A stretch of 63,383 bases of DNA from an uncultured Methanomicrobiales archaeon (GCA_964551875.1 CAZKEV010000006.1:1-63383), one strand, 5' to 3'. Shown: positions 5,393 through 35,586, counted from the first letter of the stretch. Notes: generated by a model not told the origin, from the letters alone. Numbers and translations: made by a program.

Positions 5393-6388
5393 TTAGATCG
5401 GGGAGACACTCCCCGAACAGGTACAGTTGAAGGGGGCCACCGTGCATACATCGGGAGTGAGGGGCGTGAAGAGGCTCTTCCCGTACTTTTCTACCCCGTA
5501 ATCACCGACGAACTGCTTGCCCTCGTCGGAGATGAGCCAGTTGATGAACCGGTCGGCCTGGACGATGTTCACGTTCGAGTTCACTGAACTATTCACGGCG
5601 ATGGCGCTGTACCGGTTCAGGAGGGATACCTTCTGGGTGATGAGGGGGACCAGGTTGAGCTGGCTCTTGAAGGCAAGGAATGTCCCTTCATCGGTCATGG
5701 TATATGCCCCCTTCTGGCCGGCGACGGTCAGGGTCTCCCCCATGCCCTTTCCGAGCGAGAGGTACCAGGCCCCCGAGGTTGCGACATCCTTCGTATAGTT
5801 GAAGCCGGCGCCCTTCCAGATGTTCTGCTCAGCGGTGTGGGTGCCTGACTGGTCACCCCGTGAGGCAAAGAAGACGCCGGGGGTGTTGTTCAGCCCGAGC
5901 ATCCGGATCTTCTTGAAGGCCTCTTCGGGGGTGGTGTTTGTGATGCCTGCCGGATTGCTCGGAGGACCGACTATCATATAATAGTTGTATGCAAAGCAGC
6001 GCCGGTTGAGGCCCAAGCCCTTGTCGATGAATGCCTTCTCCTGCGAGGGTGAGTGGACGAGGAGGAGGTCGCAGTCTCCCCGTGTCGCGACCTGGATGGC
6101 GATACCGGTCCCCTGCGAGGTGATCTTGAGGTTTATATCCGTCTGGTTCTCGTATAAGTCCTGGACCGCATTGAGGAGACCGGTGTCATAGAGGCTCGTC
6201 GTGGTGGCGATGAGGAGGGTATTCGGCGAATGGACCACGGGAGTCGGTGTTGCTGCGACCGTGGTCGTGACTGCGGTTGGAGTGACCGGAGTGGTCCCGG
6301 GCTGGGAGGTGCACCCGGCAATGAGGATCCCCATCAGGATCACGAGGGCGAGCATGCATCCCATGCATGCCTTTCTGGAGGTGTGCAT
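5393..6388 (-). CDS. tupA: Tungstate ABC transporter substrate-binding lipoprotein
   Basis: TupA signature ATTTSLYDTGLL, GTGIAIQ, LLLVHSP, FASRGDQSGTH; lipobox-like LIAGC followed by a Thr/Pro linker. Confidence 0.9.
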   Translation of the reverse strand: MHTSRKACMGCMLALVILMGILIAGCTSQPGTTPVTPTAVTTTVAATPTPVVHSPNTLLIATTTSLYDTGLLNAVQDLYENQTDINLKITSQGTGIAIQVATRGDCDLLLVHSPSQEKAFIDKGLGLNRRCFAYNYYMIVGPPSNPAGITNTTPEEAFKKIRMLGLNNTPGVFFASRGDQSGTHTAEQNIWKGAGFNYTKDVATSGAWYLSLGKGMGETLTVAGQKGAYTMTDEGTFLAFKSQLNLVPLITQKVSLLNRYSAIAVNSSVNSNVNIVQADRFINWLISDEGKQFVGDYGVEKYGKSLFTPLTPDVCTVAPFNCTCSGSVSPI

Positions 6389-6486
6389 GTGGCAGATTAA
6401 GGATAATAGAGTTATTTAATTTTTGTCATTTGTTAGTCGTTACGCCATCATTCGAAACCGAGATATAGGGTGGAGGGGCTTGATCG

Positions 6487-7218
6487 ATGGGTGATGAGAA
6501 AATGGCAAATGAGATTATCGACGGGTTCATCCAGGCGATCCAGCTCATCGTCACCATGGACCCTGAAGTGGTGAAGATCACCATCCTCTCCCTGGAGATC
6601 TCCCTCACCGCCACCCTGTTCTCCGCGTGTATCGCAATTCCCATTGGTGCATTCCTGTACTACCGTGATTTCTTTGGAAAACGGGCAGTGATCAACATCA
6701 TCCAGACGCTCTATGCGCTGCCGACTGTGATCGCCGGTCTGGTCCTCTTTCTCGTCATCTCCCACCAGGGTCCGCTGGGTTTTTTAAGCCTCCTCTATAC
6801 AGCCCCCGGCATGGTTATTGCCCAGATGATCCTTGTCCTTCCCCTTATCACGGGGCTCACCTTCTCGGCCCTGAGCGGGATCGATCCGGAGATGCGGCAG
6901 ACCGTTACATCCTTGGGAGCAACCACTATGCAGTCGGTGAGAACCCTGATCCTCGAGGCGAGGTTCGGGATCCTAGCCGCTGTAATCCTGGGTTTCGGGC
7001 GGGCGATCTCGGAGGTGGGTGCCGCCATGATCATCGGGGGGAATATCCGCGGGTACACCCGGGTCCTGACAACCGCGATCTCCCTCCAGACATCCGTCGG
7101 GGATTTTGCATTCGCCATCGCCCTCGGGGTCATCCTCCTCGGAGTCGCCATCGTGGTCAACATCGGCCTGAACCTCATCCAGTCGGATTCGGCGTGGAAG
7201 AGCGCATTTACATCCTGA
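6487..7218 (+). CDS. tupB: Tungstate ABC transporter permease
   Basis: LYALPTVIAGL, GPLGFLSLLYT, FGRAISEVGAAMIIGGNIRGYTRVLTTAI. Confidence 0.92.
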   Translation: MGDEKMANEIIDGFIQAIQLIVTMDPEVVKITILSLEISLTATLFSACIAIPIGAFLYYRDFFGKRAVINIIQTLYALPTVIAGLVLFLVISHQGPLGFLSLLYTAPGMVIAQMILVLPLITGLTFSALSGIDPEMRQTVTSLGATTMQSVRTLILEARFGILAAVILGFGRAISEVGAAMIIGGNIRGYTRVLTTAISLQTSVGDFAFAIALGVILLGVAIVVNIGLNLIQSDSAWKSAFTS

Positions 7219-7237
7219 GTTCCGGTGAGGTACGAGC

Positions 7238-8311
7238 GTGATCGAGGCAGGGAGTCTCGCGAAATGGTATGGGGAGAAGGAGATCCTCAGGGACATTACC
7301 TTCTCCATTCCCGACGGGGAGATCTTCGGTCTCATCGGCCCGAGCGGCTCCGGGAAGAGTACCCTCCTCCGGCTGCTTGATCTCATCGAGATGCCGACAG
7401 AAGGGACCCTCTCGGTCTTTGGCGAGGACGCCCTCTCCCCGGATGCCCGTTTCCATCTCCGCCGCAGGATGGCGATGCTCTCCCAGAAACCCATCATCTT
7501 CAACCGGACCGTGTACGAGAATATCGCCATCGGCATGAAGTACCGCGGGGAGAGGGAGGCGACCATCGGGAGAAGGGTAAAGGAAGCCCTTCGCGAGATC
7601 GGTCTATCGGATTACTCCAGGCGGTCCGCACGGACGCTTTCGGGGGGAGAAGCCCAGCGGGTCGCGCTTGCCCGTGCCATCGTCACCGATCCCGAGGTCC
7701 TCTTTCTCGATGAACCCACAGCAAACCTGGATCCCCCTTCGGCTGAGAAGATTGAAGAGATCATCATGCACCTGAACCGTGAAACAGGAATGACCATCTT
7801 CGTCAGCACCCATGATATGCTCCAGGGGCAGCGTCTTGCGGGGAGGATGGGAGTCATGATGGAGGGAAGGCTTCCGCAGATCGGAACCACCATGGAGATC
7901 TTCCACAGGCCGGCCACGAAGAACATCGCGCGGTTCGTGCAGGTGGATAATATTTTTCCTGGCACGGTCACGGCGAGCCAGAACGGAGAAGCTTCCATCG
8001 AGGTCTCAGGAATGATCTTCAGGGCGATCTCCCCCGTTCAGCCAGGGAAGGGCGCAAGTATCCTCTTCCGGGCAGAGGATGTAACCATTGGTATTGTCGA
8101 GGGTCCGAAGACCAGCGCGCGGAATGTCTTTCCAGGCAGGATTAAACGCATGATACCCTCGGGACCGTTTGTTCATGTGATCATCGACTGCGGTATCGAC
8201 ATAACGGCACTCGTAACCATCAGATCTGCAGAAGATCTGGCCCTTGTCATCGGGAAAGAGGTCTGGATATCGGTGAAGGCAACCGCGATCCACGTGCTCC
8301 CCGAAAGATAA
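7238..8311 (+). CDS. tupC: Tungstate ABC transporter ATPase with C-terminal TOBE domain
   Basis: Walker A GPSGSGKST, LSGGEAQR, Walker B FLDEPTANLD; TOBE-type SARNVFPGRI. Confidence 0.9.
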   Translation: MIEAGSLAKWYGEKEILRDITFSIPDGEIFGLIGPSGSGKSTLLRLLDLIEMPTEGTLSVFGEDALSPDARFHLRRRMAMLSQKPIIFNRTVYENIAIGMKYRGEREATIGRRVKEALREIGLSDYSRRSARTLSGGEAQRVALARAIVTDPEVLFLDEPTANLDPPSAEKIEEIIMHLNRETGMTIFVSTHDMLQGQRLAGRMGVMMEGRLPQIGTTMEIFHRPATKNIARFVQVDNIFPGTVTASQNGEASIEVSGMIFRAISPVQPGKGASILFRAEDVTIGIVEGPKTSARNVFPGRIKRMIPSGPFVHVIIDCGIDITALVTIRSAEDLALVIGKEVWISVKATAIHVLPER

Positions 8312-9927: not shown

Positions 9928-10082
9928 TACCCGCCCCTCCCCCGGGCCGGTGTTCTCATACTCATCAGGTACCTCCCCCTTGCGTAAGAATTGCGCGGTG
10001 CAGTCTGCCAGGGAAGGGGATGACACCTGATCCATACCAAGGTTCATATCCAAGGAGTGAACATCATCCTGCGGTGAAAACG

Positions 10083-10292
10083 ATGAAGATCAGTGCTCGT
10101 AACATCCTGAAAGGAAAAGTGAAGAAGATTACGCCGGGAAGCGTCAACTCGGAAGTCATCCTGGAACTGCCTGGGGGGCAGGAGATAACCTCGATCATCA
10201 CGAGAAAATCGGTGGAATCCCTCGGGCTTGCAGTCGGGAAACCGGCCTATGCCGTGATCAAGTCGAGCGAAGTGATGATTGCTGTAGACTGA
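10083..10292 (+). CDS. mop: Molybdenum-pterin-binding Mop/TOBE protein (molbindin, 69 aa)
   Basis: MKISARNILKGKV...ITSIITRKSVESLGLAVGKPAYAVIKSSEVMI is the classic Mop repeat. Confidence 0.93.
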   Translation: MKISARNILKGKVKKITPGSVNSEVILELPGGQEITSIITRKSVESLGLAVGKPAYAVIKSSEVMIAVD

Positions 10293-10441: not shown

Positions 10442-13400
10442 TTATTTCTTGAGCTTTTCGATGGCAATGCCGCCAAGGGTCAGGGGCGTAGTCGGATCGG
10501 CCGTGTCAGCGGCACCCGGCTGTGTATCGTATACCACAGCGCCCGTTGCCTTGTCCCAGATCCTGATCCGGAACAGGTCCTGTTGTGGTTTCGACCCGCC
10601 GTCGATCACCGAGACGAGGAAGCCGTAGGTCTTCTCCCCCTTGATCTTGCCGCTCCCCTGGTAGAAGGCCTTCTTTGCCTCCTTCTGGATCACGAGCCAG
10701 TCGTACGACATGGAGGTAAAGGCGATCTTCCCCTTCGGGAACTGGAACGCGGTCACCCCTTTGAAGGGCTCCTTCTTCAGGACCGGGTACCTCGCCAGGA
10801 ACTCCAGGGTGGCAGGACCGGTGGCAATCGGATCGGCTGCCAGAGCCCCCGCGGGGGACTTGATGCTCCCAGCTCCCGCCACGAACCCGCTCTGCGGGTC
10901 ATAGACGATGAACTGGGTGCTGCTGGTGGCCGTTGCTTCAACCCCCATACTGTCCTTGAGGGTCACCTTCACGATGTAGAACCCTGGCATGGTGTAGGCG
11001 TGGCTTCCGGTGATGGAGTGGGCCGTCTCGTCCACAACGCCCGCTGACGTGGTCCCATCGCCCCAGTCAAAGACCGCGGTGTGGGTGTCGTACGGGTCGG
11101 TGAAATAAGCCACGGCGGTTGCGTCAGTACCGACCTTCACCGGGTCCGTGGAAATGGTGAGGGAGTCGATGACCGGCCGGAGGTTCAGGATGATGGTGTT
11201 GATCCCGCCGACTTGGAGCCCGCCTGTGGGAACGCCCACGCCCTTCAGCTTCAGCGGCCAGTTCTTGTCGGTCTCCGGGAAGGTGGCACCGTTCAGGGTG
11301 CTGGTCACGATGTAGTCGTTGCTCCGGACCGTGGGCACGCTGTCAAAGACCTTCGTGTAGCCATCCCTGGCCTTGACCACGATATCGTAGCCTGCCAGTG
11401 CCAGCTCCTCGTTGTATGCCGTGTTGGAGTGCATGTCCGCGTCGTCCACGAAGCCTGCCAGGAACCAGAGGGGCATGCCGTTCCAGGTCCCCTTGGAGTC
11501 GGTGTAGCTCACCCCGTGGTTCGCCCCGAACTGGCAGGCCAGGGCCTGCTCGAAGTAAGTCTTGGCCACGGTGTAGGCGATCCCGCCCACCCGGGTGCCG
11601 TCCAGCTGGAGGTCCCACTGGGTCTCAGGTTTCGTGTAGACCCGGATCTCTGTCACGTACTTGGCAGATAGACCGGCGGCTGATGGGTATAGGATACCCG
11701 GGGCATACTGCCCGTAGTCCGGGTCCGAGGGGTCATAGGACTGGTAGTAGTAGTGCCAGTAACCGGGCGGCATCGTCTCGTGCATGTCCCACTGGGCGTA
11801 GATGTGGTCATCGGGCATGAAGAAGAGCCGCATGCCGTCCGCATAGCTCGGTACGTACTTCCCGTCGGCGTACCAGGCCAGGATCGCGTCACCCTGGAGT
11901 GCCTGGATGGCCGGTGTGGTGTACACGCTGGTGTAGGGCAGGATGGTCTTGTACCCATCGGAGGCGACGAGGACCAAGTCTGTGCCGGCTCCCATGCCGC
12001 CGACGAGGCTCACCAGGTCATAGAGCCGGGTACCCTTCACGGCATTGGAGATCTTGAACCCGCCCTTGGTCTGGTCGTACTGTCCCCAGATATCGGTCGG
12101 GTCCATGGTGACCCCCTGGAACTTGTACTGGTTGGTCCCGTCGCCGATTGTGTCGAACTGGGCAATCATCGCGGTGTAGTCGATCAGTACCTCATCTACC
12201 ACCGTCGTCCGGTCATCCCCGTACTTCACGATGTGGAGCTTCGGAATCTGCACGGGTACCCCGAACTCGGTGAGCTCGATCTCGGCAATCTTCCCCACGC
12301 TGCCCCCACCCAGGGCCCCGTTGGGTTTGGTCACGGCATCGCCGACGAGCCTCAGCGGGCCACTGGTGGTGAGCGGAGCACCGTCCATCATGGTGGCGAT
12401 GATGTACCGGTTACTCCACGCCACGTCGGTGCTCGCAAAGGTCTTCGCAAAGCCATCGCTTGCCTTCACGGTAACCTTGTAACCGGCCATGGCCTGGACC
12501 GCGTTGAACTCGTGAGGCTGGCGGTCGTCAACCCAGCCGGCCAGGAACCAGAGGGGGATACCGGACCAGACATGGGTCTCCTTGATACTGCCATCATCAT
12601 TCTTGATGACCTGCGTCCACTCCACGTAGTGGCCGGATGCCGGGCACCCGAGCCCTTCCTCGATCTCTACCTGGGAGAGGACGTCGGTGATCTTCCCCTT
12701 CACAGCCAGGTTGTAGCTGCCCGGTTCCGCCGGGGGCGTCTGGAGCTCCAGGATCTCGATCCGAACGATCGTCCCCACCCGGTCTTTCCCGGAAGTGATG
12801 GCGGGGCCATTCAGCTTCAGCGGATAGCCGTCCGCTGCCGTCAGCTCCACGCCGTTCTTCTTGTTGGCCACGATATAGCCATCATTGCGCTTCACCTGGG
12901 CACTGGTGAATGTCCTGCTGTAACCGTCGGCCGCAACCATCTTGACGGTGTAGCCGGCGTCTGCCACCGTGTCGCTGAACGTCCAGTGATCCGCCAGCTC
13001 GATGTCATCCACGGATCCCAGGAGCACCCAGAGGGGCACACCGGACCACTTGGTACCGGATCCATCGGTCCACTCAATGTAGTGGTCGGACATGGGGCAG
13101 GCGAGGCCTGCCTCGTACTCGGACTTGGGGATGGTGTCACCGACCTCCCCCAGCATTTGCAGGGTCCATGCTTCGGGAGGTTCCGGGAGACCTGAGAGCT
13201 CGATCCGCGCGATTCCTCCGATCTGCTGGCCTGTCAGAACCCCCGATCCCTTCAGGTGGAGGGGCCAGGAGGGCTTGCCTGCAGGGGTGGTGGGGGGGAG
13301 GGGGGCATCGTTCAGGGTATTGGCCACGATGTAGTTGTCGTTCCGGGCGATGGCTGCACTATCCAGAGTGATGGACGTGCCGTCCGACCCGATGACGTTC

Positions 13401-15037
13401 ACCTCGTAGTGCTCCGCGGCGATGTCGTCATTGAAGTTGAAGTGGAGCGGCCCCACGTCGGGATCGTCGTCCACCATGCCCACCAGGAACCAGAGCGGGA
13501 CCCCGCCCCATTCGTTCCCGTCGCCATCGGTCCAGAAGACCTGGTGGCCGGAGCTCGGGCAGGTGAGGCCCTCTTCGAAGTAGGCCTTGTCGACGGTTGT
13601 ATCCACCGCCCCCGAAAGCTCAAGGCTCCAGTCGGTGGGCATCGTGATGGCATCGATGTAGTCCGTCTTCACCTCGTCGTCAGAGCCCAGGGTGTTCGTC
13701 ACGGTGAGCTTCACCGTGTACTTCGCCACCATGTCGTAGGTGAAGGACGGGTTCTGCTCGGTGGAATCCACCGTGCCGTCGTTCTGGAAGTCCCACTCGT
13801 AGGAGAGGTGGGCAAGACCAGTGGACTCATCCTGGAAGTTCACGGTGAGGGGCGCCAGGCCGGTCAGGGGCGATGCCGAGAACTTCGCAACAGGATAATC
13901 GGGGGCCACGACGTCGGCCACGGTCTTAACCGCCGCCGTTGCCTCAACGATGGCCTGGGTGTAAGTCGGGTGAGCACCCCCGGAATATCCTGACACGTAG
14001 TAGAACTTAACCTCGTCATTGTCGTTGAGCTGGATGACGTTCAGGCCGTCAGGTGTGTTTCCATATCCGTCCTTGTAGACCTCGTTCACGTACGCGAACC
14101 ACTTGCCCGGGCTGTTGTACATGTAAGTGCCCACGTCGTCCAGCAGGAGCACGCTATCGTAGGTCCACCGCTTGTCGGTCACGCCGTAGGTGAGGCCGGT
14201 CGCGTGGAGAGCCCCCAGCGGGGTATCCTCCTGGATCGTGTAGCTGGTCATTTCCTTGGACAGCTGAGTGAAGGGGGCGTCCTGGACGAGCGTCACCGTG
14301 CCGTCGAAGAGCACATCCATCGTGGGCGGTGCGGGGTCGTCGCTGTAGATGAGAATCCTGTTAACATATTTCACCGAGAGCCCGCTGCTGGACGGCCAGA
14401 AGGTGCCGTCATAGTAGTAATGCCAGCGGTCCGCGGCCAGGTTCTCGTGCATATCCCAGTTGCCGAATACGTGATAGCCCCACGGGTTCGTGCTCGTATT
14501 GGCAAAGAAGAAGAGACGCATACCGCTGTAGAAATCGGGCGGGTAGCCAGTCCCCTGAGCTTCTCCTGTGCCATCCTCCCCGACATACCAGGCAAGCACC
14601 ATCCGGAAATAGTCCGGATTCGAATAGACATCATCGTAATCAAAACTCTTAGCAAAATTGTCCGTCGCTTTGATGGTGACATATTCGCCGGCATTCATGC
14701 CACCCACGAGGTTGCAGAGGTCCCTGACATCGGTTCCCTTCACTGCACCATAGTCCCGGGACATAACATTGACCTCTTCCGCCGGATCCCACATGTTGGC
14801 AGGATCGAACGTGGGGCCCTGGAAGTAGTAGTGGGTGGTCCCATCCCCGTAGACCGGGAGCCCCAGGTTGGTCTCCATGTCCGGGATGGATAGTGTTCGC
14901 TGATCCAGTACCGTCGTCCCGTCATTCGCATACTTGATGACGGTAACTTCTGTGGAGGCCGCCGCAGCCGGGAGCACGAGCACCAGGCCAGCCAGCAGCA
15001 GCACCATCAAAACCTTCTGCACTCTCGTATCAGTCAT
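10442..15037 (-). CDS. 1531-aa secreted multidomain protein: long SUOX-like domain, DUF4430/transcobalamin-like, PKD, 3 short Oxidored_molyb-like, second long domain, 4th short domain, PKD-like, conserved C-terminal domain
   Basis: Signal peptide (LLLAGLVLVLPAAAA); repeated W-x-G-[VIM]-P-L-W...[GA]-x-D-G...N/DG..L..PL.L.G...[VI]..I.L units; PKD motifs (APLTVNFQD, YEWDFQNDG). Confidence 0.85.
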   Translation of the reverse strand: MTDTRVQKVLMVLLLAGLVLVLPAAAASTEVTVIKYANDGTTVLDQRTLSIPDMETNLGLPVYGDGTTHYYFQGPTFDPANMWDPAEEVNVMSRDYGAVKGTDVRDLCNLVGGMNAGEYVTIKATDNFAKSFDYDDVYSNPDYFRMVLAWYVGEDGTGEAQGTGYPPDFYSGMRLFFFANTSTNPWGYHVFGNWDMHENLAADRWHYYYDGTFWPSSSGLSVKYVNRILIYSDDPAPPTMDVLFDGTVTLVQDAPFTQLSKEMTSYTIQEDTPLGALHATGLTYGVTDKRWTYDSVLLLDDVGTYMYNSPGKWFAYVNEVYKDGYGNTPDGLNVIQLNDNDEVKFYYVSGYSGGAHPTYTQAIVEATAAVKTVADVVAPDYPVAKFSASPLTGLAPLTVNFQDESTGLAHLSYEWDFQNDGTVDSTEQNPSFTYDMVAKYTVKLTVTNTLGSDDEVKTDYIDAITMPTDWSLELSGAVDTTVDKAYFEEGLTCPSSGHQVFWTDGDGNEWGGVPLWFLVGMVDDDPDVGPLHFNFNDDIAAEHYEVNVIGSDGTSITLDSAAIARNDNYIVANTLNDAPLPPTTPAGKPSWPLHLKGSGVLTGQQIGGIARIELSGLPEPPEAWTLQMLGEVGDTIPKSEYEAGLACPMSDHYIEWTDGSGTKWSGVPLWVLLGSVDDIELADHWTFSDTVADAGYTVKMVAADGYSRTFTSAQVKRNDGYIVANKKNGVELTAADGYPLKLNGPAITSGKDRVGTIVRIEILELQTPPAEPGSYNLAVKGKITDVLSQVEIEEGLGCPASGHYVEWTQVIKNDDGSIKETHVWSGIPLWFLAGWVDDRQPHEFNAVQAMAGYKVTVKASDGFAKTFASTDVAWSNRYIIATMMDGAPLTTSGPLRLVGDAVTKPNGALGGGSVGKIAEIELTEFGVPVQIPKLHIVKYGDDRTTVVDEVLIDYTAMIAQFDTIGDGTNQYKFQGVTMDPTDIWGQYDQTKGGFKISNAVKGTRLYDLVSLVGGMGAGTDLVLVASDGYKTILPYTSVYTTPAIQALQGDAILAWYADGKYVPSYADGMRLFFMPDDHIYAQWDMHETMPPGYWHYYYQSYDPSDPDYGQYAPGILYPSAAGLSAKYVTEIRVYTKPETQWDLQLDGTRVGGIAYTVAKTYFEQALACQFGANHGVSYTDSKGTWNGMPLWFLAGFVDDADMHSNTAYNEELALAGYDIVVKARDGYTKVFDSVPTVRSNDYIVTSTLNGATFPETDKNWPLKLKGVGVPTGGLQVGGINTIILNLRPVIDSLTISTDPVKVGTDATAVAYFTDPYDTHTAVFDWGDGTTSAGVVDETAHSITGSHAYTMPGFYIVKVTLKDSMGVEATATSSTQFIVYDPQSGFVAGAGSIKSPAGALAADPIATGPATLEFLARYPVLKKEPFKGVTAFQFPKGKIAFTSMSYDWLVIQKEAKKAFYQGSGKIKGEKTYGFLVSVIDGGSKPQQDLFRIRIWDKATGAVVYDTQPGAADTADPTTPLTLGGIAIEKLKK
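10497..10813. repeat. 317-bp direct repeat copy 1 (3' coding region of the 1531-aa gene)
   Basis: Base-by-base identical to 15822..16138 by visual comparison. Confidence 0.9.
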
Positions 15038-15379: not shown

Positions 15380-15770
15380 TTATTTCCCGCGCGCCCACCG
15401 GAGACGGATGACAGGCACTCCCAGCGCGCCCAGGGTCGCCGGCGCGCCAAAGCCGGGAATGCCCGGGGATCGCCCCTCCCCGCCGGCGCGCCGGCTGCCC
15501 CACCTTCGGCCACCACCACCGCCCGGGGTTTGAACCGGCTTCGTCGCGGCGGTGAGGGTCCCGGCGTTCCACATCCACCGCGGTGGGGAGAACTATCCAG
15601 CGGCCGTTAGACCGGTTGTACCGGGCCAGGGCCAACTTCTGCGCATTGTTCCCAGCTGCCTTCAGGTCCGCGCCGGTATACCACACGATGACGGTGGCGT
15701 CCTTTGAAGGAGCCTCATCACCCCGTCTCCCGGAAAAGGAATAAAGAGGGTAGCTTTCTCCTGAGGTCAC
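15380..15770 (-). pseudogene. Frameshifted remnant of the C-terminal third of the PGF-CTERM protein 21551..22930
   Basis: KDATV.V.Y..ADLKAAGN.A.KLALARY.RS, GTLTAAT, AVVV and GIPGFGA..LGALG pieces lie in three different frames, all matching 21551..21910. Confidence 0.85.
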
Positions 15771-18700
15771 TTCAGGAGTTTCTCGATGGCGATTCCGCCA
15801 AGGGTCAGGGGGGTCGTCGGGTCGGCCGTGTCAGCGGCACCCGGCTGTGTATCGTATACCACAGCGCCCGTTGCCTTGTCCCAGATCCTGATCCGGAACA
15901 GGTCCTGTTGTGGTTTCGACCCGCCGTCGATCACCGAGACGAGGAAGCCGTAGGTCTTCTCCCCCTTGATCTTGCCGCTCCCCTGGTAGAAGGCCTTCTT
16001 TGCCTCCTTCTGGATCACGAGCCAGTCGTACGACATGGAGGTAAAGGCGATCTTCCCCTTCGGGAACTGGAACGCGGTCACCCCTTTGAAGGGCTCCTTC
16101 TTCAGGACCGGGTACCTCGCCAGGAACTCCAGGGTGGCTGGACCGGTTGCGGCCGGATCGGCTGCCAGGGCTCCCGCAGGGGACCTGATGGCCCCCGCTC
16201 CTGCCACGAACCCGCTCTCCGGATCATAGACGATAACGGGCTGGGTGCTGGTGGCAGTTGCCGTGGCATCCCTGCTATCCGTCAGGGTCAGGCTCACCGT
16301 ATAAAAGCCCGGCCTGGTGTAGGCATGAGTCCCGGTCACCGAGCCCGAAATCTCCGATCCGGTCTGTTCGTCGACCACGCCGGCTGACGTGATCCCGTCG
16401 CCCCAGTCAAAGACGGCCGTGTGGGTGTCGGAGGGATCGCGGAAGGCCGCGGTCGCTGTGATCCCGGTGTTCACCAGGGTAGGTTCGGTGGGTGCGGTTA
16501 TGGAATCGATAACCGGGGGCGAATTCAGCGACATCACGACCGTCTCAAAGACCGTGCCCGGCGGGTACACCGTGGTGATGCTCTTGAGGTCAGCGGAGAC
16601 ATCCGCGACCCGGATCACCTCTGCTGTGGCAGTCTTTGCCACGGGATCCACGGTCACCTTGATATAGGCGAGGGCGTACTCGAGGCTGTTCTGGGAACCT
16701 TCGGCCCGCGGGGTCGCAAGGTTGTAGGCAGGCCCGCCACCGGTCCCCGAGACGAAGTAATGGATGTGATTCACCAGGAACCGTTCGTAGGCATGAACAT
16801 GCCCGTTGAAGACCGCGAGCACGTTGTTTGCATAGAACTCGTCCTCCCACTCTGCCCTGATATTCTCATATCCGCCGAAGTGCTTGGAATCGGAACTGTA
16901 GGGCGGGTAGTGGAACGAGACGAACCGGAAGGGTTTCTCCGTTGCCTGGAGGTCTCCCTCCAGCCATGCACTCTGTGTCGGGAAATCCGGCCATGCCCAG
17001 TCATTGCTGTCCAGGATGGTGAAATGCCCGTCCCCGCAGTCGAAGGAGTAGTAGTCAGGGACGCCGTAGGCGGCGACGTAGTTCGGACCGTTGTCATCAT
17101 GGTTCCCCCGCGCCGGGAAGACCGGGAGGCCGGCCATCATGTTCTTTCCGGCTGCAAAGTACCGGTCCCAGTCGTCCATGCTGGCAGCATCGTTCACGAG
17201 ATCCCCGGAGTTGAGCACGAAGAGCACGTCCGGCTCCTCCGCGATCCGGTCCGCGACCAGCTTGTGCCGCTCCAGCTGGCTGTAGGTGGGGAGCTGGTCC
17301 TGCGTGTCGCTGTACATGACGAAGGTGAACGCACCGCTCTCCGGGAAGGTCCGGAAGTGGAGGTCGCCGGTTTCCCGGGCGCCGTACAAGACCCGGTAGT
17401 GGTAGAGGGTATCGGGGGCCAGCCCGGCAAGCGAAACTTGGTGGAGCTGCGTGCTCACCCCGTCGCTGGCGGTCTGGTCGTACGCGGTGTGTGCCGAATA
17501 GTACTCGTCTGTGGCGTACTCCACGGTCATCTCCGTCGGCCTCGCGGTTTTCGCGTTCACCGTCAGGCCGGTCGCCGAAGCACCGGTGAGGTATGGGCCC
17601 CAGGTGAGCACCGGGCGCACCTCGATGAGGTCAGTCTTCGTCTCGGTGTCGCTCCCGGCGATGTTTGTCACCGTGAGGGAGACCGTGTACGTGCCGGGAT
17701 CAGTGTAGATCCAGGAGGGGAACTGCTCGGTGCTGTCCACCATCCCGTCGTTTGTGAAGTCCCAGGCATATGCGAGGGGAGTCGTCCCGGTCGACTTGTC
17801 AATGAACTGCACCTCCAGCGGGGCGATCCCGGTCATCGGATCCGCGATGAAGTCCGCGGCCGGGGGTGTCGGGGGTTCCGTCACGGTGATGAGCCCGATC
17901 TTCGTCTCGGTGCTGCTCCCGCCTTCATTCGTTGCCGTCAGGGAGACCGTGCAGGTCCCGGCGGTGCTGAAGGTGTGGGAGGGGCTCTGTGCCGTGTCGG
18001 TTGACCCGTCGCCAAAGTCCCAGGCCCACGATGTCGGGGAACCCGTCGATGCGTCTGTGAACTGGACCGTCAGGGGAGCATACCCGGACGTGGTATCTGC
18101 GGTGAAGGATGCAACCGGTGCCGGGGGTCCACCTCCTCCGGTATATGTCACCTCAAGATAGGGACGTTTCGTAGCGTCGGCGTATTCACTTGAATAAAAC
18201 TTGACATAGTTAGTACCCTGGGATTCGGTCTGATCCTTTACCAGCCATCCATAATTGGGAGTGCCATCAGTAAATGCCTGCACGTCTGATGTAATATCCC
18301 ACACGACCCAGGAATTCGCAGTTGTCCCGGTTGCAGCACTGGAAATTGGCATGAGAACATTCTTACCGAAAATATTCCTCCATGTTACCAAGGTCTCGAC
18401 CCAGCTCTCGGTTACCCTGTGGACGTCATAGGTCCTGCCAGTGCCGACAACAAGGCTCCAGATGTCAAGATGTAGTGTCGCGGAGTCGATGGAAGCACCG
18501 GCAGGTATCGAGGTAAGATCAAAGTGAACGACTGTCCGCCGGTTCATGCCAGCCCTTGACATCACGTAGAGATAGTCGTGAATATCATCCCCATTTCCAT
18601 CCGGTGAATTCTCCATCAGGAGACTGTCAGCATCGGCAGGAATTGTGACTGTGGTAACCCCTCCCCCGGAACTCTGGACCGTGATATAACCAGTCTTCAC

Positions 18701-19951
18701 CTCGTCGTCACTACCTGCGGAATTCGTAACGGTGAGCTTCACCGTGTAGGTGCCGGCAGCAGGGTACACGTGGGACGGGTTCTGGACCGTTGCATCCAAC
18801 GTGCCGTCGTTCTCGAAGTCCCACGCGTACGTCAGGGGCGATGTCCCCATCGATTCATCGGTGAAGTGGACGATGAGCGGGGCGGTGCCGGTCAGGACAT
18901 CGGACGTAAAAGCTGCGGACGGGGGAACCGGTGCCGGGGTGACAGTGATGTAACCGTCCTTCACCTCGTCATCGGTTCCGCCGGCATTGGTCACCGTGAG
19001 CTTCACCGTGTAGGTGCCGGCCGTATCGTAGACATGAGACGGGTTCTGGGCTGTATCATCAGTCACGCCATCATTGTTAAAGTCCCAAGCCCACGACGTC
19101 GGGGAACCGGTCGATGCGTCAGTGAAATGCACGGTAAGCGGGGCGGTGCCGGAAGTCACATCCGAGGTAAAAGCCGCGACGGGTGCGACCGGGCCCGCGG
19201 AGCTGATGATCCGGATCTCGGAAACGTACTTCACCGAGAGGCCTGTTGTGGTCGGGTAATTCTCGCCGCCCTGGATGTAGTAATACCAGTACTCCGGTGC
19301 GGCAGCCTCGTGCCAGTCGTAGTTCCCGAACGCGTGGATTCCCCACGGGTTCACGCCGTCATCCGCGAACCAGACGAGGCGCATGCCGTCCGTGTAGCCG
19401 GTGTCGGGGTATTTGCCCGGGGTGGCCGGATCAAAGTCAAAATCGGTATACCATGTCAGGACCATCGGCCCCTCGCGGGAGGAGTACCCGTACACGTTCG
19501 CGTACGCGAAATCCTTGGTCATCCCGTCTGATGCGCGGACACGGAGCGTGTCGCCCGGGGACATTCCCCCGACGAGGTTGCAGAGGTCTTTAAAGTCTGT
19601 GCCCTTCGCAGCGCCCATGTCCTTTTCCTGGACATTGGTATCTTCGTCGGGGTTCCAGCGGAGCGCCTGTTCGGTTGCATCATCAGGGTCGTCCACAAAG
19701 ACCGGGCCCTGATGATAGTAATGGATCGTTCCGTCGCCGAGTACGGGCAGCGTATCCCGCATCTGCTGGTACGTCAGGGTCTGTTCGGCGAGGACGGTCG
19801 TCCCGTCGCTCGCGTATTTTACAACATGCACCTGGGTCGTTGCCGCCATCGCGGGTGCGATGAAGAGCGCAAGGCATATGATCAGGAGGAGGTATCCTCT
19901 GATTCCTATCGGGAACAGGGGGTGATTTATTGTTGTGTGTGCCATCGCCAT
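15767..19951 (-). CDS. ~1394-aa secreted protein: long SUOX-like domain, 2 PKD, DNRLRE-like domain, 2 PKD, FN3 + purple-acid-phosphatase metallophosphoesterase, PKD-like, C-terminal domain shared with the 1531-aa protein
   Basis: Start at 19951 after a GAGGAG RBS; signal peptide; phosphoesterase motifs DTQD, GDLVND, GNHD, FHYPPY, GHVH; VHFDLTSIPAGASIDSATLHL. Confidence 0.87.
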   Translation of the reverse strand: MAMAHTTINHPLFPIGIRGYLLLIICLALFIAPAMAATTQVHVVKYASDGTTVLAEQTLTYQQMRDTLPVLGDGTIHYYHQGPVFVDDPDDATEQALRWNPDEDTNVQEKDMGAAKGTDFKDLCNLVGGMSPGDTLRVRASDGMTKDFAYANVYGYSSREGPMVLTWYTDFDFDPATPGKYPDTGYTDGMRLVWFADDGVNPWGIHAFGNYDWHEAAAPEYWYYYIQGGENYPTTTGLSVKYVSEIRIISSAGPVAPVAAFTSDVTSGTAPLTVHFTDASTGSPTSWAWDFNNDGVTDDTAQNPSHVYDTAGTYTVKLTVTNAGGTDDEVKDGYITVTPAPVPPSAAFTSDVLTGTAPLIVHFTDESMGTSPLTYAWDFENDGTLDATVQNPSHVYPAAGTYTVKLTVTNSAGSDDEVKTGYITVQSSGGGVTTVTIPADADSLLMENSPDGNGDDIHDYLYVMSRAGMNRRTVVHFDLTSIPAGASIDSATLHLDIWSLVVGTGRTYDVHRVTESWVETLVTWRNIFGKNVLMPISSAATGTTANSWVVWDITSDVQAFTDGTPNYGWLVKDQTESQGTNYVKFYSSEYADATKRPYLEVTYTGGGGPPAPVASFTADTTSGYAPLTVQFTDASTGSPTSWAWDFGDGSTDTAQSPSHTFSTAGTCTVSLTATNEGGSSTETKIGLITVTEPPTPPAADFIADPMTGIAPLEVQFIDKSTGTTPLAYAWDFTNDGMVDSTEQFPSWIYTDPGTYTVSLTVTNIAGSDTETKTDLIEVRPVLTWGPYLTGASATGLTVNAKTARPTEMTVEYATDEYYSAHTAYDQTASDGVSTQLHQVSLAGLAPDTLYHYRVLYGARETGDLHFRTFPESGAFTFVMYSDTQDQLPTYSQLERHKLVADRIAEEPDVLFVLNSGDLVNDAASMDDWDRYFAAGKNMMAGLPVFPARGNHDDNGPNYVAAYGVPDYYSFDCGDGHFTILDSNDWAWPDFPTQSAWLEGDLQATEKPFRFVSFHYPPYSSDSKHFGGYENIRAEWEDEFYANNVLAVFNGHVHAYERFLVNHIHYFVSGTGGGPAYNLATPRAEGSQNSLEYALAYIKVTVDPVAKTATAEVIRVADVSADLKSITTVYPPGTVFETVVMSLNSPPVIDSITAPTEPTLVNTGITATAAFRDPSDTHTAVFDWGDGITSAGVVDEQTGSEISGSVTGTHAYTRPGFYTVSLTLTDSRDATATATSTQPVIVYDPESGFVAGAGAIRSPAGALAADPAATGPATLEFLARYPVLKKEPFKGVTAFQFPKGKIAFTSMSYDWLVIQKEAKKAFYQGSGKIKGEKTYGFLVSVIDGGSKPQQDLFRIRIWDKATGAVVYDTQPGAADTADPTTPLTLGGIAIEKLLK
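15822..16138. repeat. 317-bp direct repeat copy 2
   Basis: Identical to 10497..10813. Confidence 0.9.
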
Positions 19952-19958
19952 CTCCTCC

Positions 19959-21155
19959 TCACATATTGCTGTGGTGGTGAGTGACCACCAGTCTGACGTA
20001 GTCGGTCTCGATACGCGAGAAGAATACTTCATCCCCGGGAGTATTTTCAACCGCAAGAACTGTCACATTGCCTGAATTGACGTAGTTGGTGATGCCCGAG
20101 GAAATCTCTCCGGTCAGGGTAACTTCTTCGCCGCTTGGGGTGCTGTCGAGTTCCTGGAATCCCGAGCCATCCCAGATATAGAGGCTTGTTCCATTGGCAC
20201 TGCCGCCGGAATCATGCCAGCCTCTCCCGTTCCATGTGATGACCAATTTCTCAAGCTTATTGACAGGGCCATCCTTGTCTGTCGCCGTATCAATTGAGAA
20301 GTTGAACCTGTGCGCTGCATAGGAACCGGCACTAAAGTCGATCTGGAATGTTCCCTCGTCATCAGCGATGTTACTGGTTGAACCTAATGGATTACCCGGT
20401 ACGTCAATCGAACTAGGTGGATCCGAGCTCACCTCTCCCTTATACGCCCATCCCGTTGTATCACCGGTCGTGTTGAAGTCGTGCCGGTGCGGCGGGTAGA
20501 TCTTGAGCTGGTTCACGTACTTGACGGACAGTCCCTTTGCCGAGGGCCAGATGCTGCTGTAGTTGTACCGGTACCACGGTGCAAGGGAATCCCGCATTTC
20601 AACGAGCGTGAAGTTCAGGGAGTCCGCAACGCCGTAGGGGTCTGGCCGCGGGTTATAGAAGAACGAGCGGATACCTTCCGAATACCCGGGAACTGGTCCT
20701 GACACGCTGTCCCACCAGGCGAGGACGAGGTTCCCCTGGCCGCTCGCAGGTTCATAGATATTCGTGTAGTTGAAGTACCGGGTCATGCCGTCGCTTGCCT
20801 TCACGAAGATCTCATCCCCGGCAGACATACCGCCCACGAGGTCTGTCAGGTTGCGGACATACGTTCCGTTGTGCCCGTAGTAGAGGATCATGTTCTGCCC
20901 CGCCGTCCCGTAGGGATCAGCAGAGTTAAACGTTGGTCCCTGCATGTAGAGGGGGCCGTTGCTGTCGACGTTTAGGAATGACGACTGCATCTGGCTCCAC
21001 TCCCGTAATTCTGACCTTTCGGCAAACGAGTAGTTGTTTGCCGCGTACTTGATCACCGTGACATTCTCGCTCGCCGCAGATACCGGCGCGGCCAGTATCC
21101 CGCAGAGGACGAGAAGCAGGGTGAAAACAAGAAATCGTTGGCTCAGCCTGTTCAT
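19959..21155 (-). CDS. Secreted protein with a divergent long SUOX-like domain and a C-terminal beta-rich domain
   Basis: Signal peptide; NVTVIKYA, YMQGPTFN, NLTDLVGGM, VKASDG, LVLAWW, WPSAKGLSVKYVNQLKIY. Confidence 0.82.
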   Translation of the reverse strand: MNRLSQRFLVFTLLLVLCGILAAPVSAASENVTVIKYAANNYSFAERSELREWSQMQSSFLNVDSNGPLYMQGPTFNSADPYGTAGQNMILYYGHNGTYVRNLTDLVGGMSAGDEIFVKASDGMTRYFNYTNIYEPASGQGNLVLAWWDSVSGPVPGYSEGIRSFFYNPRPDPYGVADSLNFTLVEMRDSLAPWYRYNYSSIWPSAKGLSVKYVNQLKIYPPHRHDFNTTGDTTGWAYKGEVSSDPPSSIDVPGNPLGSTSNIADDEGTFQIDFSAGSYAAHRFNFSIDTATDKDGPVNKLEKLVITWNGRGWHDSGGSANGTSLYIWDGSGFQELDSTPSGEEVTLTGEISSGITNYVNSGNVTVLAVENTPGDEVFFSRIETDYVRLVVTHHHSNM

Positions 21156-27869: not shown

Positions 27870-28138
27870 GGCGCCGGGTACACCTCCCGTCAGGCCCCAC
27901 GGGCCGTGTAATCGCCGCTGCATCGGGGAGCGGCGGCGACGGCAATGCCTGTTACCATTGATCGTAACCACGGGAGATATAGGTTTTGATTTAATCCATT
28001 CATGTTGTTCAGTAAATACATTTACCTCCGGTTTCCTCCCTGTGAATGGGGGAGCACGTATCGCGATATGACAAAAAATGGGAAGGTGGGTGTATCGGAA
28101 GGGCCGTCACCCCTCCCCCCGTTTCATGCCTCTGCCCC

Positions 28139-30052: not shown

Positions 30053-30314
30053 CCTCTGATATTGCCACCTCTCCTATTATCGCCGGGTGTCATAAAGATG
30101 TATGACTTATCCAGAAATGTTCAACTTTTATCATTAACCTACCTGATAGACTGCCATTGAAGGCAACCCGTTTGTTCCTGTCAGGTGGCCGACAGGCGGG
30201 ATGCTGATAAATGAGTTGACTTCCGTGAAAAGTTAGGAAGGTATAAATAATCCTCCCGGAAACCGGAAAGCCGTGATGGGAGACAGGGCTCTGGGGAGAT
30301 GGTACAGAGGGGGA

Positions 30315-33682: not shown

Positions 33683-34765
33683 TCATTCCTCCGCCTCTCC
33701 CTCGGACCCGGCGATGAGGTGGACCGCCTCCGGGGGAATGATAGCGGTGACAATCGTCCCGATAGCGGGCACTCCTCCATCTTCAGTCCCGGTCACCCTG
33801 GCCACCAGGGGGAAGCCGCAGTCGAGCTCCACGAGAATGGTGTGTTCGCCGGGAACGATGCCGGTCACGGTGCCCGTGACGGCGGAGGTTCCCTCCCGTG
33901 CGCAGGTCGCCCCGCGAACCAGACGGATCTCCGCGGCGGGGATGCAGGCTGTCACCCTCGCACCGGCCCGTGAGGGGGTGGCGGCCAGGATCCTTGCATT
34001 GCCCGGGAGGAGGATCTCGGAGCCAAAGCCCGTCGATTCGATGACCATGCCCTCCACCAGGTTCTCGATCCCCGCGATACGGGCGGCCTCCCTGTTCACC
34101 GGCCGCCTGAAGACCTCCTCGACGGTCCCGGCCTGCAGGATCCGCCCGCCGGAGATCACCGCCACCCGGTCCGCGAGGGCGAAGGCCTCGTCCCTCGAAT
34201 GGCTCACCTGCACCACGGTGAGGCCCTTCTCCCGCTGGAGCGACTTCATCTCCTGCATGAACCGGGCACGGAGGAGCGGGTCCACCGCGGCGAAGGGCTC
34301 GTCGAGGAGGAGGACCTCCGGTTCCGTGGCAAGGGCCCTTGCCAGGGCGACCCTCTGCCGTTCCCCGCCGGAGAGGGTGTCGGGGTACCGGTCCGCCAGC
34401 ATGGTGAGTCCGAACCGGTCCAGGAGGGATTGCACGAGCATGTTGATCCGTTCTTCCGGATGGCCCCGTAATATCGGGCCGAAGGCCACGTTCTCCCGGA
34501 CCGTCAGGTGTGGAAAGAGGGCATAGTCCTGGTACACGAGGGCCACGTTCCGGCCCTCGGGCGGGACGCCGGTCATATCCCGCCCGCCAATGAGGACCCG
34601 GCCGGTAAGGTCCGGGTGGAGCCCCGCCATAACCTCGAGGAGGAGGGTCTTCCCCGCCCCCGAGGGTCCCACCAGGAAGAGGTACTCCCCCCTGCTGACG
34701 GAAAGGTCCACTTTCCGGAGGGTGAAGTTCCCCCTCGTGAGGGAGACGCCCTCAAGGGCGATCAT
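33683..34765 (-). CDS. wtpC: Tungstate/molybdate ABC transporter ATPase (TOBE)
   Basis: GPSGAGKT, VYQDYALFPHL, LSGGERQR, LLDEPF; start MIALEG (34765). Confidence 0.88.
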   Translation of the reverse strand: MIALEGVSLTRGNFTLRKVDLSVSRGEYLFLVGPSGAGKTLLLEVMAGLHPDLTGRVLIGGRDMTGVPPEGRNVALVYQDYALFPHLTVRENVAFGPILRGHPEERINMLVQSLLDRFGLTMLADRYPDTLSGGERQRVALARALATEPEVLLLDEPFAAVDPLLRARFMQEMKSLQREKGLTVVQVSHSRDEAFALADRVAVISGGRILQAGTVEEVFRRPVNREAARIAGIENLVEGMVIESTGFGSEILLPGNARILAATPSRAGARVTACIPAAEIRLVRGATCAREGTSAVTGTVTGIVPGEHTILVELDCGFPLVARVTGTEDGGVPAIGTIVTAIIPPEAVHLIAGSEGEAEE

Positions 34766-35561
34766 GCTCCCTCCCGGAGGCCCCTGCCACCCTCCGCACG
34801 ACAAGGAAGAGGAGGAAGGAGACCACCACCATGATGAAGGCCACGCTCCGGCTCTCGGCGAGGCCGCCCGTCGAAAACCGCTGGTAGATGAGGGTCGAGA
34901 TGACCATGGGGAAGTAGGCGATCATCACCACCGCGGCGAACTCCCCCACGGCCCGGCCCCAGGCCATGGTGGCCCCGCTCACCAGGTGGCCCCGGGCGAG
35001 GGGGAGGGCTACGGCGAGGAAGGCCCGGAACCGGGTCGCCCCGAGGGTCCGGGCCACGTGCTCGAGGTGGAGGGGGACCCGGTGGAACCCCTCCCGCACC
35101 GCCCCGACGTAGTAGGGCGTGGAGACGAAGACCATGGCGGCCACGATGCCGAGGAAGGCGTCCTCGAAGAAGATGCCGATCCCGGCGAGGGGGGCACCGA
35201 GGGGGCCCCGGGCCATGAAGAGGAGGTAGACCATGAGCCCCGCGACCGTGTGGGGGAGGACGAGGGGGAGGTCGACGAGGCTCTCCACGGTCCTCTTCAG
35301 GGGGAACTCCTCCCGGGCGAGGAGATAGGCGAGGGGCGTCCCCAGGAGAAAGAGGATCCCCACCGTGAGGAAGCCGGCGGCAAAGGTGAGGAGGAGGGAC
35401 TGGATGACCTCGGTCTCCATGGCAACCGCAACGAGGTGGTGGAGGGACCCGAGCTCGGGGATGGCGATGACGAGGAGGGCGAGGGTGGTGTAGGCGAGGA
35501 GAACCCCTCCGGTGAGGGCGAAGGCAAGGGTCATGGGGTCCGGGAGGCGGACGGCTTTCAT
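34752..35561 (-). CDS. wtpB: Tungstate/molybdate ABC transporter permease
   Basis: LVDLPLVLPHTVAGL, ARTLGA, WGRAVGEFAAV. Confidence 0.88.
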   Translation of the reverse strand: MKAVRLPDPMTLAFALTGGVLLAYTTLALLVIAIPELGSLHHLVAVAMETEVIQSLLLTFAAGFLTVGILFLLGTPLAYLLAREEFPLKRTVESLVDLPLVLPHTVAGLMVYLLFMARGPLGAPLAGIGIFFEDAFLGIVAAMVFVSTPYYVGAVREGFHRVPLHLEHVARTLGATRFRAFLAVALPLARGHLVSGATMAWGRAVGEFAAVVMIAYFPMVISTLIYQRFSTGGLAESRSVAFIMVVVSFLLFLVVRRVAGASGREHDRP

Positions 35562-35586
35562 GCCGATCCCCCCGGCACGGGCCGGC

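Follow-up and report, generated by a model that had tools for sequence, protein, structure and literature searches.

We analysed a 63,383-nucleotide stretch from an uncultured Methanomicrobiales archaeon (GCA_964551875.1, CAZKEV010000006.1:1-63383; hereafter the window, numbered from its first letter), in which the minus-strand gene at 10442..15037 encodes a secreted multidomain protein of 1531 amino acids (aa). The protein consists of a signal peptide, L1, X, PKD, S1, S2, S3, L2, S4, a PKD-like domain and a C-terminal domain, where S and L are short and long-type domains derived from the molybdenum cofactor (Moco)-binding fold of sulfite oxidase (SUOX). A first-pass annotation had proposed that the four short domains keep a Cys at the position of the Mo-ligating cysteine (Mo-Cys), followed by a conserved His, and that one extracellular polypeptide could bind up to four Mo- or W-pterin centres or metal ions. 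Our analysis favours another interpretation, which we hold at roughly even confidence: the S domains would be non-catalytic remnants of the SUOX fold, similar to the pterin-binding protein PruR, displayed at the cell surface with a separate Cys-His-His site and linked to the capture of tungsten/molybdenum (W/Mo) or a pterin-type ligand. The features of the gene are listed below with their supporting evidence. Residue numbers such as C27, H32 and W36 follow S2 domain numbering throughout.

10442..15037, minus strand: secreted multidomain protein, 1531 aa (open reading frame (ORF) list, Pfam, self-BLAST, and hidden Markov model census of S and L domains)
14957..15037, minus strand: Sec-type signal peptide (MTDTRVQKVLMVLLLAGLVLVLPAAAAS), without a twin-arginine motif (sequence)
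14336..14953, minus strand: L1, long-type SUOX-derived domain, aa 29-234 (34% identity to L2)
13883..14332, minus strand: X domain, aa 236-385 (AlphaFold2 predicted local distance difference test score (pLDDT) 92.1)
13655..13882, minus strand: PKD domain, aa 386-461 (Pfam PKD_4 and PKD)
13172..13639, minus strand: S1, short truncated SUOX-fold domain; triad C493 (codon 13559-13561), H498 (13544-13546) and H532 (13442-13444), with W502 (13532-13534) at the predicted Mo-Cys-equivalent position
12713..13177, minus strand: S2, short truncated SUOX-fold domain, the modelled copy; triad C647 (13097-13099), H652 (13082-13084) and H684 (12986-12988), with W656 (13070-13072) at the predicted Mo-Cys-equivalent position
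12248..12724, minus strand: S3, short truncated SUOX-fold domain; triad C798 (12644-12646), H803 (12629-12631) and H842 (12512-12514), with W807 (12617-12619) at the predicted Mo-Cys-equivalent position
11621..12250, minus strand: L2, long-type SUOX-derived domain, aa 930-1139, without the Cys/His loop and the DD...H loop
11156..11620, minus strand: S4, short truncated SUOX-fold domain; triad C1168 (11534-11536), H1174 (11516-11518) and H1203 (11429-11431), with Y1178 (11504-11506) at the predicted Mo-Cys-equivalent position
10445..11155, minus strand: PKD-like domain and C-terminal domain of about 160 aa (Pfam PKD_4, 30.3 bits; C-terminal part also in the neighbouring gene)

All eight motifs and the four Cys codon coordinates of the first-pass annotation were recomputed and found to be exact. 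In each short domain the Cys precedes a His by 5-6 residues and W-x-G-x-P-L-W by 17-26. The 1531 residues include five cysteines, four of which (C493, C647, C798 and C1168) occupy one column of the ~150-aa S1-S4 domains; the fifth, C108, lies inside the L1 helix after the WxG-equivalent. S1-S4 are true paralogues (pairwise identity 35-42%, BLASTP E 1e-20 to 1e-36). Their four-way alignment keeps Cys, His, T-D, W-x-G-x-P-L-W and V-D-D invariant, which is weak evidence of selection because 33 columns are invariant in all. Among 69 orthologous four-domain cassettes, Cys was kept in 266 of 276 copies (66, 65, 66 and 69 of 69 for S1 to S4) and His in 67, 65, 66 and 69 of 69, near-complete retention that indicates strong selection on the pair. 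Retention fell to 68% for Cys and 69% for His in the wider family (376 copies from 185 representative proteins), below that of fold-core residues such as D57 (100%), G46 (99%) and Y76 (98%). Cys and His thus appear functionally important in the cassette and dispensable for the fold. The long-type domains, and a 199-aa lipoprotein encoded elsewhere in the window, have no Cys at this position, as had been noted.

Homology of the S domains to the SUOX Moco-binding fold, also proposed earlier, was confirmed by both sequence and structure searches. S2 matched PF00174 (Oxidored_molyb) with 32.8 bits, above the cut-off of 24; S1 (14.2) and S3 (15.3) scored below the cut-off and S4 was unmatched. An AlphaFold2 model of S2, built from a 17-sequence alignment, had a pLDDT of 87.7 and a predicted template modelling (TM) score of 0.84. 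Foldseek comparison of this model with the PDB gave 43 matches at E <= 1e-3, essentially all to SUOX Moco domains or PruR. Moco-domain matches were to SorT, SorA, chicken and plant sulfite oxidase, SoxCD and YedY, with TM scores on the query of 0.57-0.67 at probability 1.0 for SorT, SorA, the chicken enzyme and YedY. PruR structures (7kp2, 7kos/7kou, 7kom and 7rkb), one of them solved with neopterin, were matched over the whole PruR length, also at probability 1.0. The best size-matched relative was PruR 7kom, with a TM score of 0.73 on the target and a root-mean-square deviation of 3.0 A. Sequence searches of the PDB with four-domain and 17-sequence profiles returned nothing significant, only weak partial alignments to SorT and plant sulfite oxidase. 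L and S domains are homologous to each other as well, by profile comparison (hhalign 94.7%, E 5.6e-8).

PruR is a degenerate SUOX fold in which the Cys-bearing hairpin is truncated and the Mo-Cys is replaced by a Trp, W70, in a 'PW' motif; a small pterin is stacked in its pocket between Y104 and W160 and hydrogen-bonded to N102, and the protein is Sec-exported and likely unable to hold Moco (PMC11194511, PMC13259868). The Mo-Cys of SUOX enzymes ends the first strand of a beta-hairpin preceding W-x-G and is described as conserved in all SUOX proteins (PMC11194511). In YedY it is C102 of the mature protein, within YRMRCVEAWSMV, again ending the first hairpin strand. The S2 model comprises strands 5-9 and 14-17, helix 18-26, C27, H32, a hairpin (34-37/43-48) and helix 49-57. 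This order of strand, strand, helix, hairpin and helix is that of YedY, with a hairpin 7-8 residues shorter by spacing. Mean-field covariation over 941 unique domain copies (effective sequence number, Meff, 494) recovered the known beta pairings and a hairpin register of Y33-S45, W36-T42 and D38-T42, which places the tip at 37-41; model and covariation agree on a hairpin spanning 33-46. C27 directly follows helix 18-26, six residues before the first paired hairpin residue.

Comparison with PruR gave the same picture. A fragment of Vibrio vulnificus PruR, residues 14-105, was recovered from a PDB alignment, and the S profile was compared with that span. HMMER and hhalign agreed in setting W36 on the 'PW' Trp, C27 on a Thr nine residues upstream, and D84-G85-Y86 on N-D-Y; in S2, D704 and Y706 are in this alignment the counterparts of the pterin contacts N102 and Y104. 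In both families the aromatic follows the helix end by 10 residues, and the W/F-x-G motif follows the aromatic by 8 in S domains versus 7 in PruR. Position 36 is aromatic in 349/376 copies (Y 168, W 151, F 30). In the window it is W in S1-S3 and Y in S4, with no preceding Pro, and the PruR alignment behind the position is weak. Position 86 is aromatic in 81% of copies and is Thr in the window S1. Because model topology, covariation register and PruR alignment are concordant, the aromatic at position 36 is indirectly indicated, via the published PruR/YedY/sulfite oxidase superposition, as the probable Mo-Cys equivalent. The placement of the Cys at the Mo-ligating position was therefore not borne out, C27 preceding the hairpin in all three analyses.

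The origin of that placement can be traced. MsrP C146 falls in PF00174 column 45 and W156 in column 71, a Cys-to-W spacing of 10 residues that we verified, and S2 W44 also falls in column 71. The PF00174 match to S2 begins with I16 in column 34, and its ungapped extension puts C27 in column 45, a coincidence that explains how a sequence-only reading equates the two cysteines. hhalign of the S profile against an alignment of MsrP (near-identical enterobacterial sequences) pairs both cysteines too, at 1.4% probability. Since the pairing would lay the predicted helix 18-26 on an enzyme beta-strand, we take it to be an artefact produced by the scoring of Cys against Cys.

Two further properties bear on cofactor binding. 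The N-terminal Moco-wrapping segment is absent from the S domains, each of which starts at W-x-L-x-L-x-G after the last strand of the previous domain and a PEPP-type linker; MsrP has about 65 mature residues before the equivalent strand. Export also differs. MsrP-type extracytoplasmic SUOX enzymes carry a twin-arginine translocation (Tat) signal (KRRQVLK in MsrP), whereas the signal of the 1531-aa protein is Sec-type and has no twin-arginine motif. Of 104 Met-initiated homologues, 87 carry an ordinary hydrophobic signal, and an RR-like motif of any kind is seen in 3. Molybdoenzymes destined for export are loaded with cofactor in the cytoplasm and leave by Tat; a Sec substrate would need loading outside the cell. 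With the N-terminal segment missing and export by Sec, four Mo/W-pterin centres per polypeptide are unlikely.

Rather than a lone Cys, the conserved feature is a triad of C27, the loop-1 His (H32) and a loop-2 His after the invariant D57-D58, the last present in all four window domains (H532, H684, H842 and H1203). The triad is complete in 791/941 unique copies and wholly absent in 70/941 (odds ratio 150, Fisher p 4e-83, uncorrected for phylogeny). His often stands in for a missing Cys, as in WASHHS and GLAHAHQ, and L-type domains lack both triad loops. C27 covaries with H32 (2.21), position 62 (1.55), position 64 (1.27) and V51 on the adjacent helix, and H32 with P28, C27, G24 and position 62. 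Y86 covaries with V134, G135 and K131 of the C-terminal strand, the region of PruR W160 and of the enzyme KW motif, and not with C27. No covariation of C27 with the pocket elements 84-86 or 131-135 was seen in the 941 copies, in which 84-86 and 131-135 covary mutually. All-or-none occurrence, exchange of Cys for His and confinement to the S subtype are as expected of a metal-binding site, and we infer from these patterns a candidate site for a metal or metal-containing ligand, one per domain and four per polypeptide. Metal ions, as suggested in the first-pass annotation, are a plausible ligand class; the Mo/W-pterin part of the same suggestion was not supported. Because 0 to 9 residues separate Cys and His, the 'CH' variants were not taken to be haem-c-like.

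The surrounding genes were compared in ten neighbourhoods, the window included. The relevant window features are:

10083..10289, plus strand: Mop/TOBE molbindin gene, 69 aa, ~150 bp past the stop of the 1531-aa gene (Pfam TOBE 73.3 bits; TIGR00638 Mop 89.3 bits, cut-off 55)
5393-6388, minus strand: TupA-like binding protein (best NCBIfam match TupA, below the equivalog cut-off; Pfam)
6487-7218, plus strand: TupB-like permease (best NCBIfam match TupB, below the equivalog cut-off; Pfam)
7238-8311, plus strand: ATPase with a TOBE domain (best NCBIfam match WtpC, below the equivalog cut-off; Pfam)
15767..20056, minus strand: neighbouring 1429-aa surface protein with an L-type domain, five PKD domains, a CBM96/disaggregatase-like domain, a purple-acid-phosphatase-like Metallophos domain and the C-terminal domain in common with the 1531-aa protein (Pfam)
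38050-38886 and 37193-38053, minus strand: two membrane-anchored L-type-domain proteins, in an operon-like row (33683..38886)
36597-37196, minus strand: small SUOX lipoprotein, 199 aa, in the same row
35587-36630, minus strand: WtpA, in the same row (TIGR03730, 310 bits vs a cut-off of 242.75)
34752-35561 and 33683-34804, minus strand: WtpB and WtpC, in the same row

The tungstate/molybdate-type ABC importer genes (5393..8311) lie two kilobases beyond the Mop gene. Five more archaeal contigs (L083, L086, L087, L089 and L090) have the row of L-type, small SUOX and WtpABC genes in the same order, all on one strand, and in them the next genes are usually one of Metallophos/purple-acid-phosphatase-like type, one for a PEGA protein and that of the cassette; in L088 the row is only partly present within its flanks. 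MFS_MOT1, TOBE and PBP_like_2 genes occur near the row in the archaeal contigs (a TOBE-only gene in L086), and an MFS_MOT1 molybdate transporter adjoins the cassette itself in two of them (L089:17482-18612 and L090:15083-16180). These recurrent transport genes uphold the previously suggested link to Mo/W biology. WtpABC, TupABC, MOT1 and Mop are associated with the cassette and sister genes (window and five other archaeal loci) by genomic position only and are unrelated to the S domains in sequence or fold. In known oxyanion binders the ligands are hydroxyl, amide or carboxylate groups rather than Cys/His. In the three bacterial contigs read, the cassette has a Metallophos gene, SLH proteins and a small SUOX gene among its neighbours, with MobB in one contig.

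The S-domain profile was used for a family search (50%-identity cluster representatives, E <= 1e-3), which found 689 representative proteins among 1.84 billion, many with 3-10 copies. A scan for related loci with the four-sequence alignment, taking one genome per species, yielded 80 loci. The commonest immediate neighbour was an upstream gene opening with an L-type domain (35/80), of which 15767..20056 is the window example. Exactly four S domains were present in 68/93 S-domain-bearing ORFs of these loci. Archaeal loci belong to Methanoregulaceae, Methanolinea, Methanomicrobiaceae and Methanotrichaceae; bacterial loci, at comparable identity, to Syntrophomonas (including S. wolfei), Pelotomaculum, Sporotomaculum syntrophicum, Desulfotomaculaceae, Dethiobacter and Dehalococcoidia. 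The ordered cassette X-S1-S2-S3-L-S4 is found in S. wolfei and Sporotomaculum proteins as well. Cultured syntrophic Firmicutes carrying the cassette are Syntrophomonas wolfei (L026:2398-5718), Sporotomaculum syntrophicum (L013:133-5751) and Pelotomaculum schinkii (L082), in which it is fused to SLH, NosD/beta-helix, Big_2 or Shr-like HID domains. The window cassette (825 aa) shares ~67% identity with archaeal and ~60% with bacterial relatives. Identity of this order on both sides points to probable transfer of the cassette between two domains of life, here bacteria and archaea that are syntrophic partners. No methanogenesis marker was present among the window ORFs scanned; the designation 'methanogen' is taken from relatives.

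Public names of the relatives are 'hypothetical', 'PKD domain-containing', 'cell surface protein' and 'NosD domain-containing', and also 'PKD repeat protein/DMSO/TMAO reductase YedYZ molybdopterin-dependent catalytic subunit'. As enzyme calls, the 'YedYZ molybdopterin-dependent catalytic subunit' labels are very likely wrong, a point of caution when annotating such proteins. PF00174 matches are already made automatically in Methanomicrobiales metagenome-assembled genomes, so their mere presence is not new. Full-text literature searches found no paper on the S-domain family or the gene cluster.

The best reading of these predicted structures and likenesses is that the S domains are a truncated SUOX fold working like PruR, as a ligand-binding SUOX remnant, and belong neither to the PruR signalling family nor to the SUOX enzymes. 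PruR (A. tumefaciens Atu3496; 7kos/7kou, 7kom, 7kp2, 7rkb) resembles them as a truncated fold of ~140-150 residues without the N-terminal Moco segment, with a shortened hairpin and, by the weak alignment between them, probably an aromatic at the Mo-Cys place and an N/D-x-Y motif at the pocket; like the 1531-aa protein, it is Sec-exported and has no catalytic partner domains. It differs in being a single-domain periplasmic protein, whereas four tandem short and two long-type copies are combined here in one surface protein. The aligned PruR fragment lacks the Cys-His-His triad and the DD...H loop, and the S domains lack the Pro of the 'PW' motif and show no obvious counterpart of W160. PruR has a DcpA diguanylate cyclase/phosphodiesterase as operon partner, while the neighbours here are W/Mo importers, and no DcpA-type GGDEF/EAL gene was found in the ten neighbourhoods. 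Its hosts are Proteobacteria, in contrast to the anaerobic Firmicutes/Chloroflexi and Methanomicrobiales of the present family. SUOX enzymes (MsrP/YedY 1XDQ, SorT 4PW3, SorA 2BLF, chicken sulfite oxidase 1SOX and plant sulfite oxidase 1OGP) have in common with the S domains the beta-grasp-derived fold, the W-x-L-x-V-x-G strand, W-x-G-x-P-L plus helix, and the NG-x-P-L and P-L-R-L motifs. Unlike these enzymes, the S domains lack a hairpin-tip Cys and a dimerisation or haem domain, and comprise 150 residues versus 260 or more.

Under the interpretation we favour, each short domain would be a non-catalytic PruR-like remnant of the Moco-binding fold, held outside the cell on a Sec-exported surface protein. 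The aromatic W/Y36 would replace the Mo-Cys as in PruR, and the pterin-contact pattern N-x-Y of PruR would survive as D84-G85-Y86. C27 and H32, in the loop between the helix and the truncated hairpin, would form with the loop-2 His a separate site for a metal or metal-containing ligand. The cassette and L-type proteins, the small SUOX lipoprotein and the purple-acid-phosphatase-like and PEGA proteins may act together at the cell surface, where W/Mo species or a pterin-type ligand would be captured or processed ahead of uptake by the neighbouring WtpABC, Tup and MOT1 importers.

Several observations weigh against this interpretation. The alignment of the S profile to PruR is weak (hhalign 56%, E 1.6e-5) and limited to PruR residues 14-105; no obvious aromatic counterpart of W160 is seen in the C-terminal strand, W160 itself lying outside the aligned fragment. 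Cys and His stand anywhere from 0 to 9 residues apart, a range that is uncommon in rigid metal sites. Position 62 covaries weakly with the hairpin-tip residue G39 (1.04), so the triad may lie near the old Mo position. Between nearly invariant positions, covariation owes as much to co-occurrence and common descent as to contact, and the geometry of triad and pocket is that of a predicted topology and of sequence, not of atomic distances. The neighbourhoods read were a small sample, 7 archaeal and 3 bacterial only. In the three bacterial contigs the cassette sits with ECF-transporter and FMN_bind/Fer4_5 genes and not with Wtp genes, so a W/Mo role may not be general.

Other explanations were weighed against the same evidence. 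If the S domains were pure PruR-type receptors, their vestigial pocket would bind free excreted pterins, for example of the methanopterin or monapterin type, and the triad would be only a structural metal site or lid. Such a role fits the best size-matched structural relatives, PruR, one of them holding neopterin, as well as the alignment of W36, D84 and Y86 with PruR W70, N102 and Y104 (position 36 aromatic in 93% and position 86 in 81%) and Sec export in both families. It accounts poorly for the unseen counterpart of the stacking Trp W160, the Thr at position 86 of the window S1, the missing DcpA-type partner gene, neighbours that are W/Mo transporters rather than pterin metabolism genes, and a triad conserved in the cassette about as strongly as the pocket residues; we consider it unlikely, although of the alternatives it is the one we take most seriously. 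A purely structural or adhesive function is a shade more doubtful. Here the modules would be envelope scaffold or mediate cell-cell contact in syntrophic consortia, with the triad a stabilising Zn-type site without ligand handling. The PKD, SLH, Big_2, NosD/beta-helix and PEGA domains are typical of envelope proteins, the cassette is common to syntrophic bacteria and their methanogen partners at ~60-67% identity, and 20% of family copies are retained without any triad residue. However, the strict order and number of domains, with four S domains in 68/93 ORFs, the triad kept in 96% of cassette copies and the recurrent clustering with importer genes argue for a specific biochemical task.

Redox roles appear less probable still. 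The triad could hold a redox metal, Cu or Fe, for surface electron transfer, for example between syntrophic partners: bacterial clusters carry FMN_bind and NapH-like Fer4_5 genes beside the small SUOX gene, with ApbE and Rnf genes nearby, and NapH-like flavinylated systems are known extracytosolic electron-transfer modules (PMC8238504). These FMN_bind/Fer4_5 genes are absent from the archaeal clusters and adjoin the small SUOX gene, not the cassette; one site per 150-aa domain is too widely spaced for efficient electron hopping, and there are no haem or Fe-S motifs. We regard this role as improbable. The model implied by the first-pass annotation, in which each S domain binds Mo- or W-pterin with C27 as ligand to give four extracellular and possibly redox-active Moco centres, is in our view the least probable of all. 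The column-45 extension and hhalign both pair C27 with the MsrP Cys, the Cys is highly conserved in the cassette, and W/Mo genes are abundant nearby, with MobB near one bacterial cluster. Yet that pairing, at its 1.4% probability, lays a helix on an enzyme strand, topology and the PruR alignment give W36 as the Mo-Cys position, and the N-terminal Moco-contacting segment is missing. Size and hairpin length match PruR, described by its authors as likely unable to hold Moco, and the protein leaves by Sec, as opposed to the Tat route of cofactor-loaded enzymes such as MsrP. The Cys, moreover, occurs in only 68% of the wider family, where it is swapped for His, against a Mo-Cys described as conserved in all SUOX proteins.

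Hydrogen- or formate-based syntrophy and methanogenesis depend on W/Mo enzymes, among them formate dehydrogenases and formylmethanofuran dehydrogenases. How such organisms are supplied with W/Mo in sulfidic, metal-poor habitats is poorly understood, and the cassette is a candidate extracellular step in trace-metal or cofactor acquisition. What sets it apart is the combination of degenerate Moco-fold domains, ~60% identity across the bacteria-archaea divide and three kinds of W/Mo importer adjacent in archaea. A bolder and more tentative proposal, possible but in our estimate clearly short of probable, is that the cassette and its sister genes constitute an unrecognised extracellular W/Mo acquisition apparatus, transferred between syntrophic bacteria and methanogens, in which Moco-fold remnants were reused through the Cys-His-His site to capture W/Mo outside the cell, perhaps as thiometalates in sulfidic habitats or as free metallopterin, and pass it on to WtpABC, Tup or MOT1. 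The PruR class, a SUOX fold without Moco, would in any case come to include hosts outside Proteobacteria, tandem arrays and a new putative metal site.

The X domain lies always directly N-terminal of S1 in relatives, often in 2-3 copies. It matched no Pfam family, and its PDB fold search gave a best E of 0.07; a DUF4430/transcobalamin-like SLBB identity was rejected, since the model is confident yet finds no Pfam or PDB fold match. The ~200-aa C-terminal domain common to the 1531-aa and 1429-aa proteins has no Pfam match either. It is encoded within a 657-bp direct repeat, 87.7% identical (10451-11090 vs 15776-16430). The repeat suggests that the two adjacent genes recently underwent duplication or gene conversion.

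In bacteria (regions L084:23228-24307, L082:1-1899 and L085:16482-18650), a small SUOX gene stands beside FMN_bind and NapH-like Fer4_5 genes, and one instance of fusion between an ECF S-component (PF09819) and a SUOX-like domain occurs. These arrangements hint that the bacterial small SUOX remnants could be extracytoplasmic substrate-capture or redox partners. A TrmO_N-domain gene adjoins the cassette gene in the window (9427-10053, minus strand) and in Pelotomaculum schinkii (L082:15056-15895), and in none of the other neighbourhoods read; the adjacency may be coincidental. Trm1 and DUF2117 genes also occur in the window, which shows synteny with Methanomicrobiales contigs; both features support its archaeal origin. 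S domains are confined to the 1531-aa gene in the window, and nine L-type domains occur in eight ORFs. The L-type ORF regions (19959-21155, 25296-27971, 28139-30052, 30273-33602 and 37193-38886) make up a large paralogous surface-protein set, in which the L-type domain nearly always directly follows the signal peptide and is fused to PKD, MAM-like, PEGA/DUF3344 or phosphatase modules.

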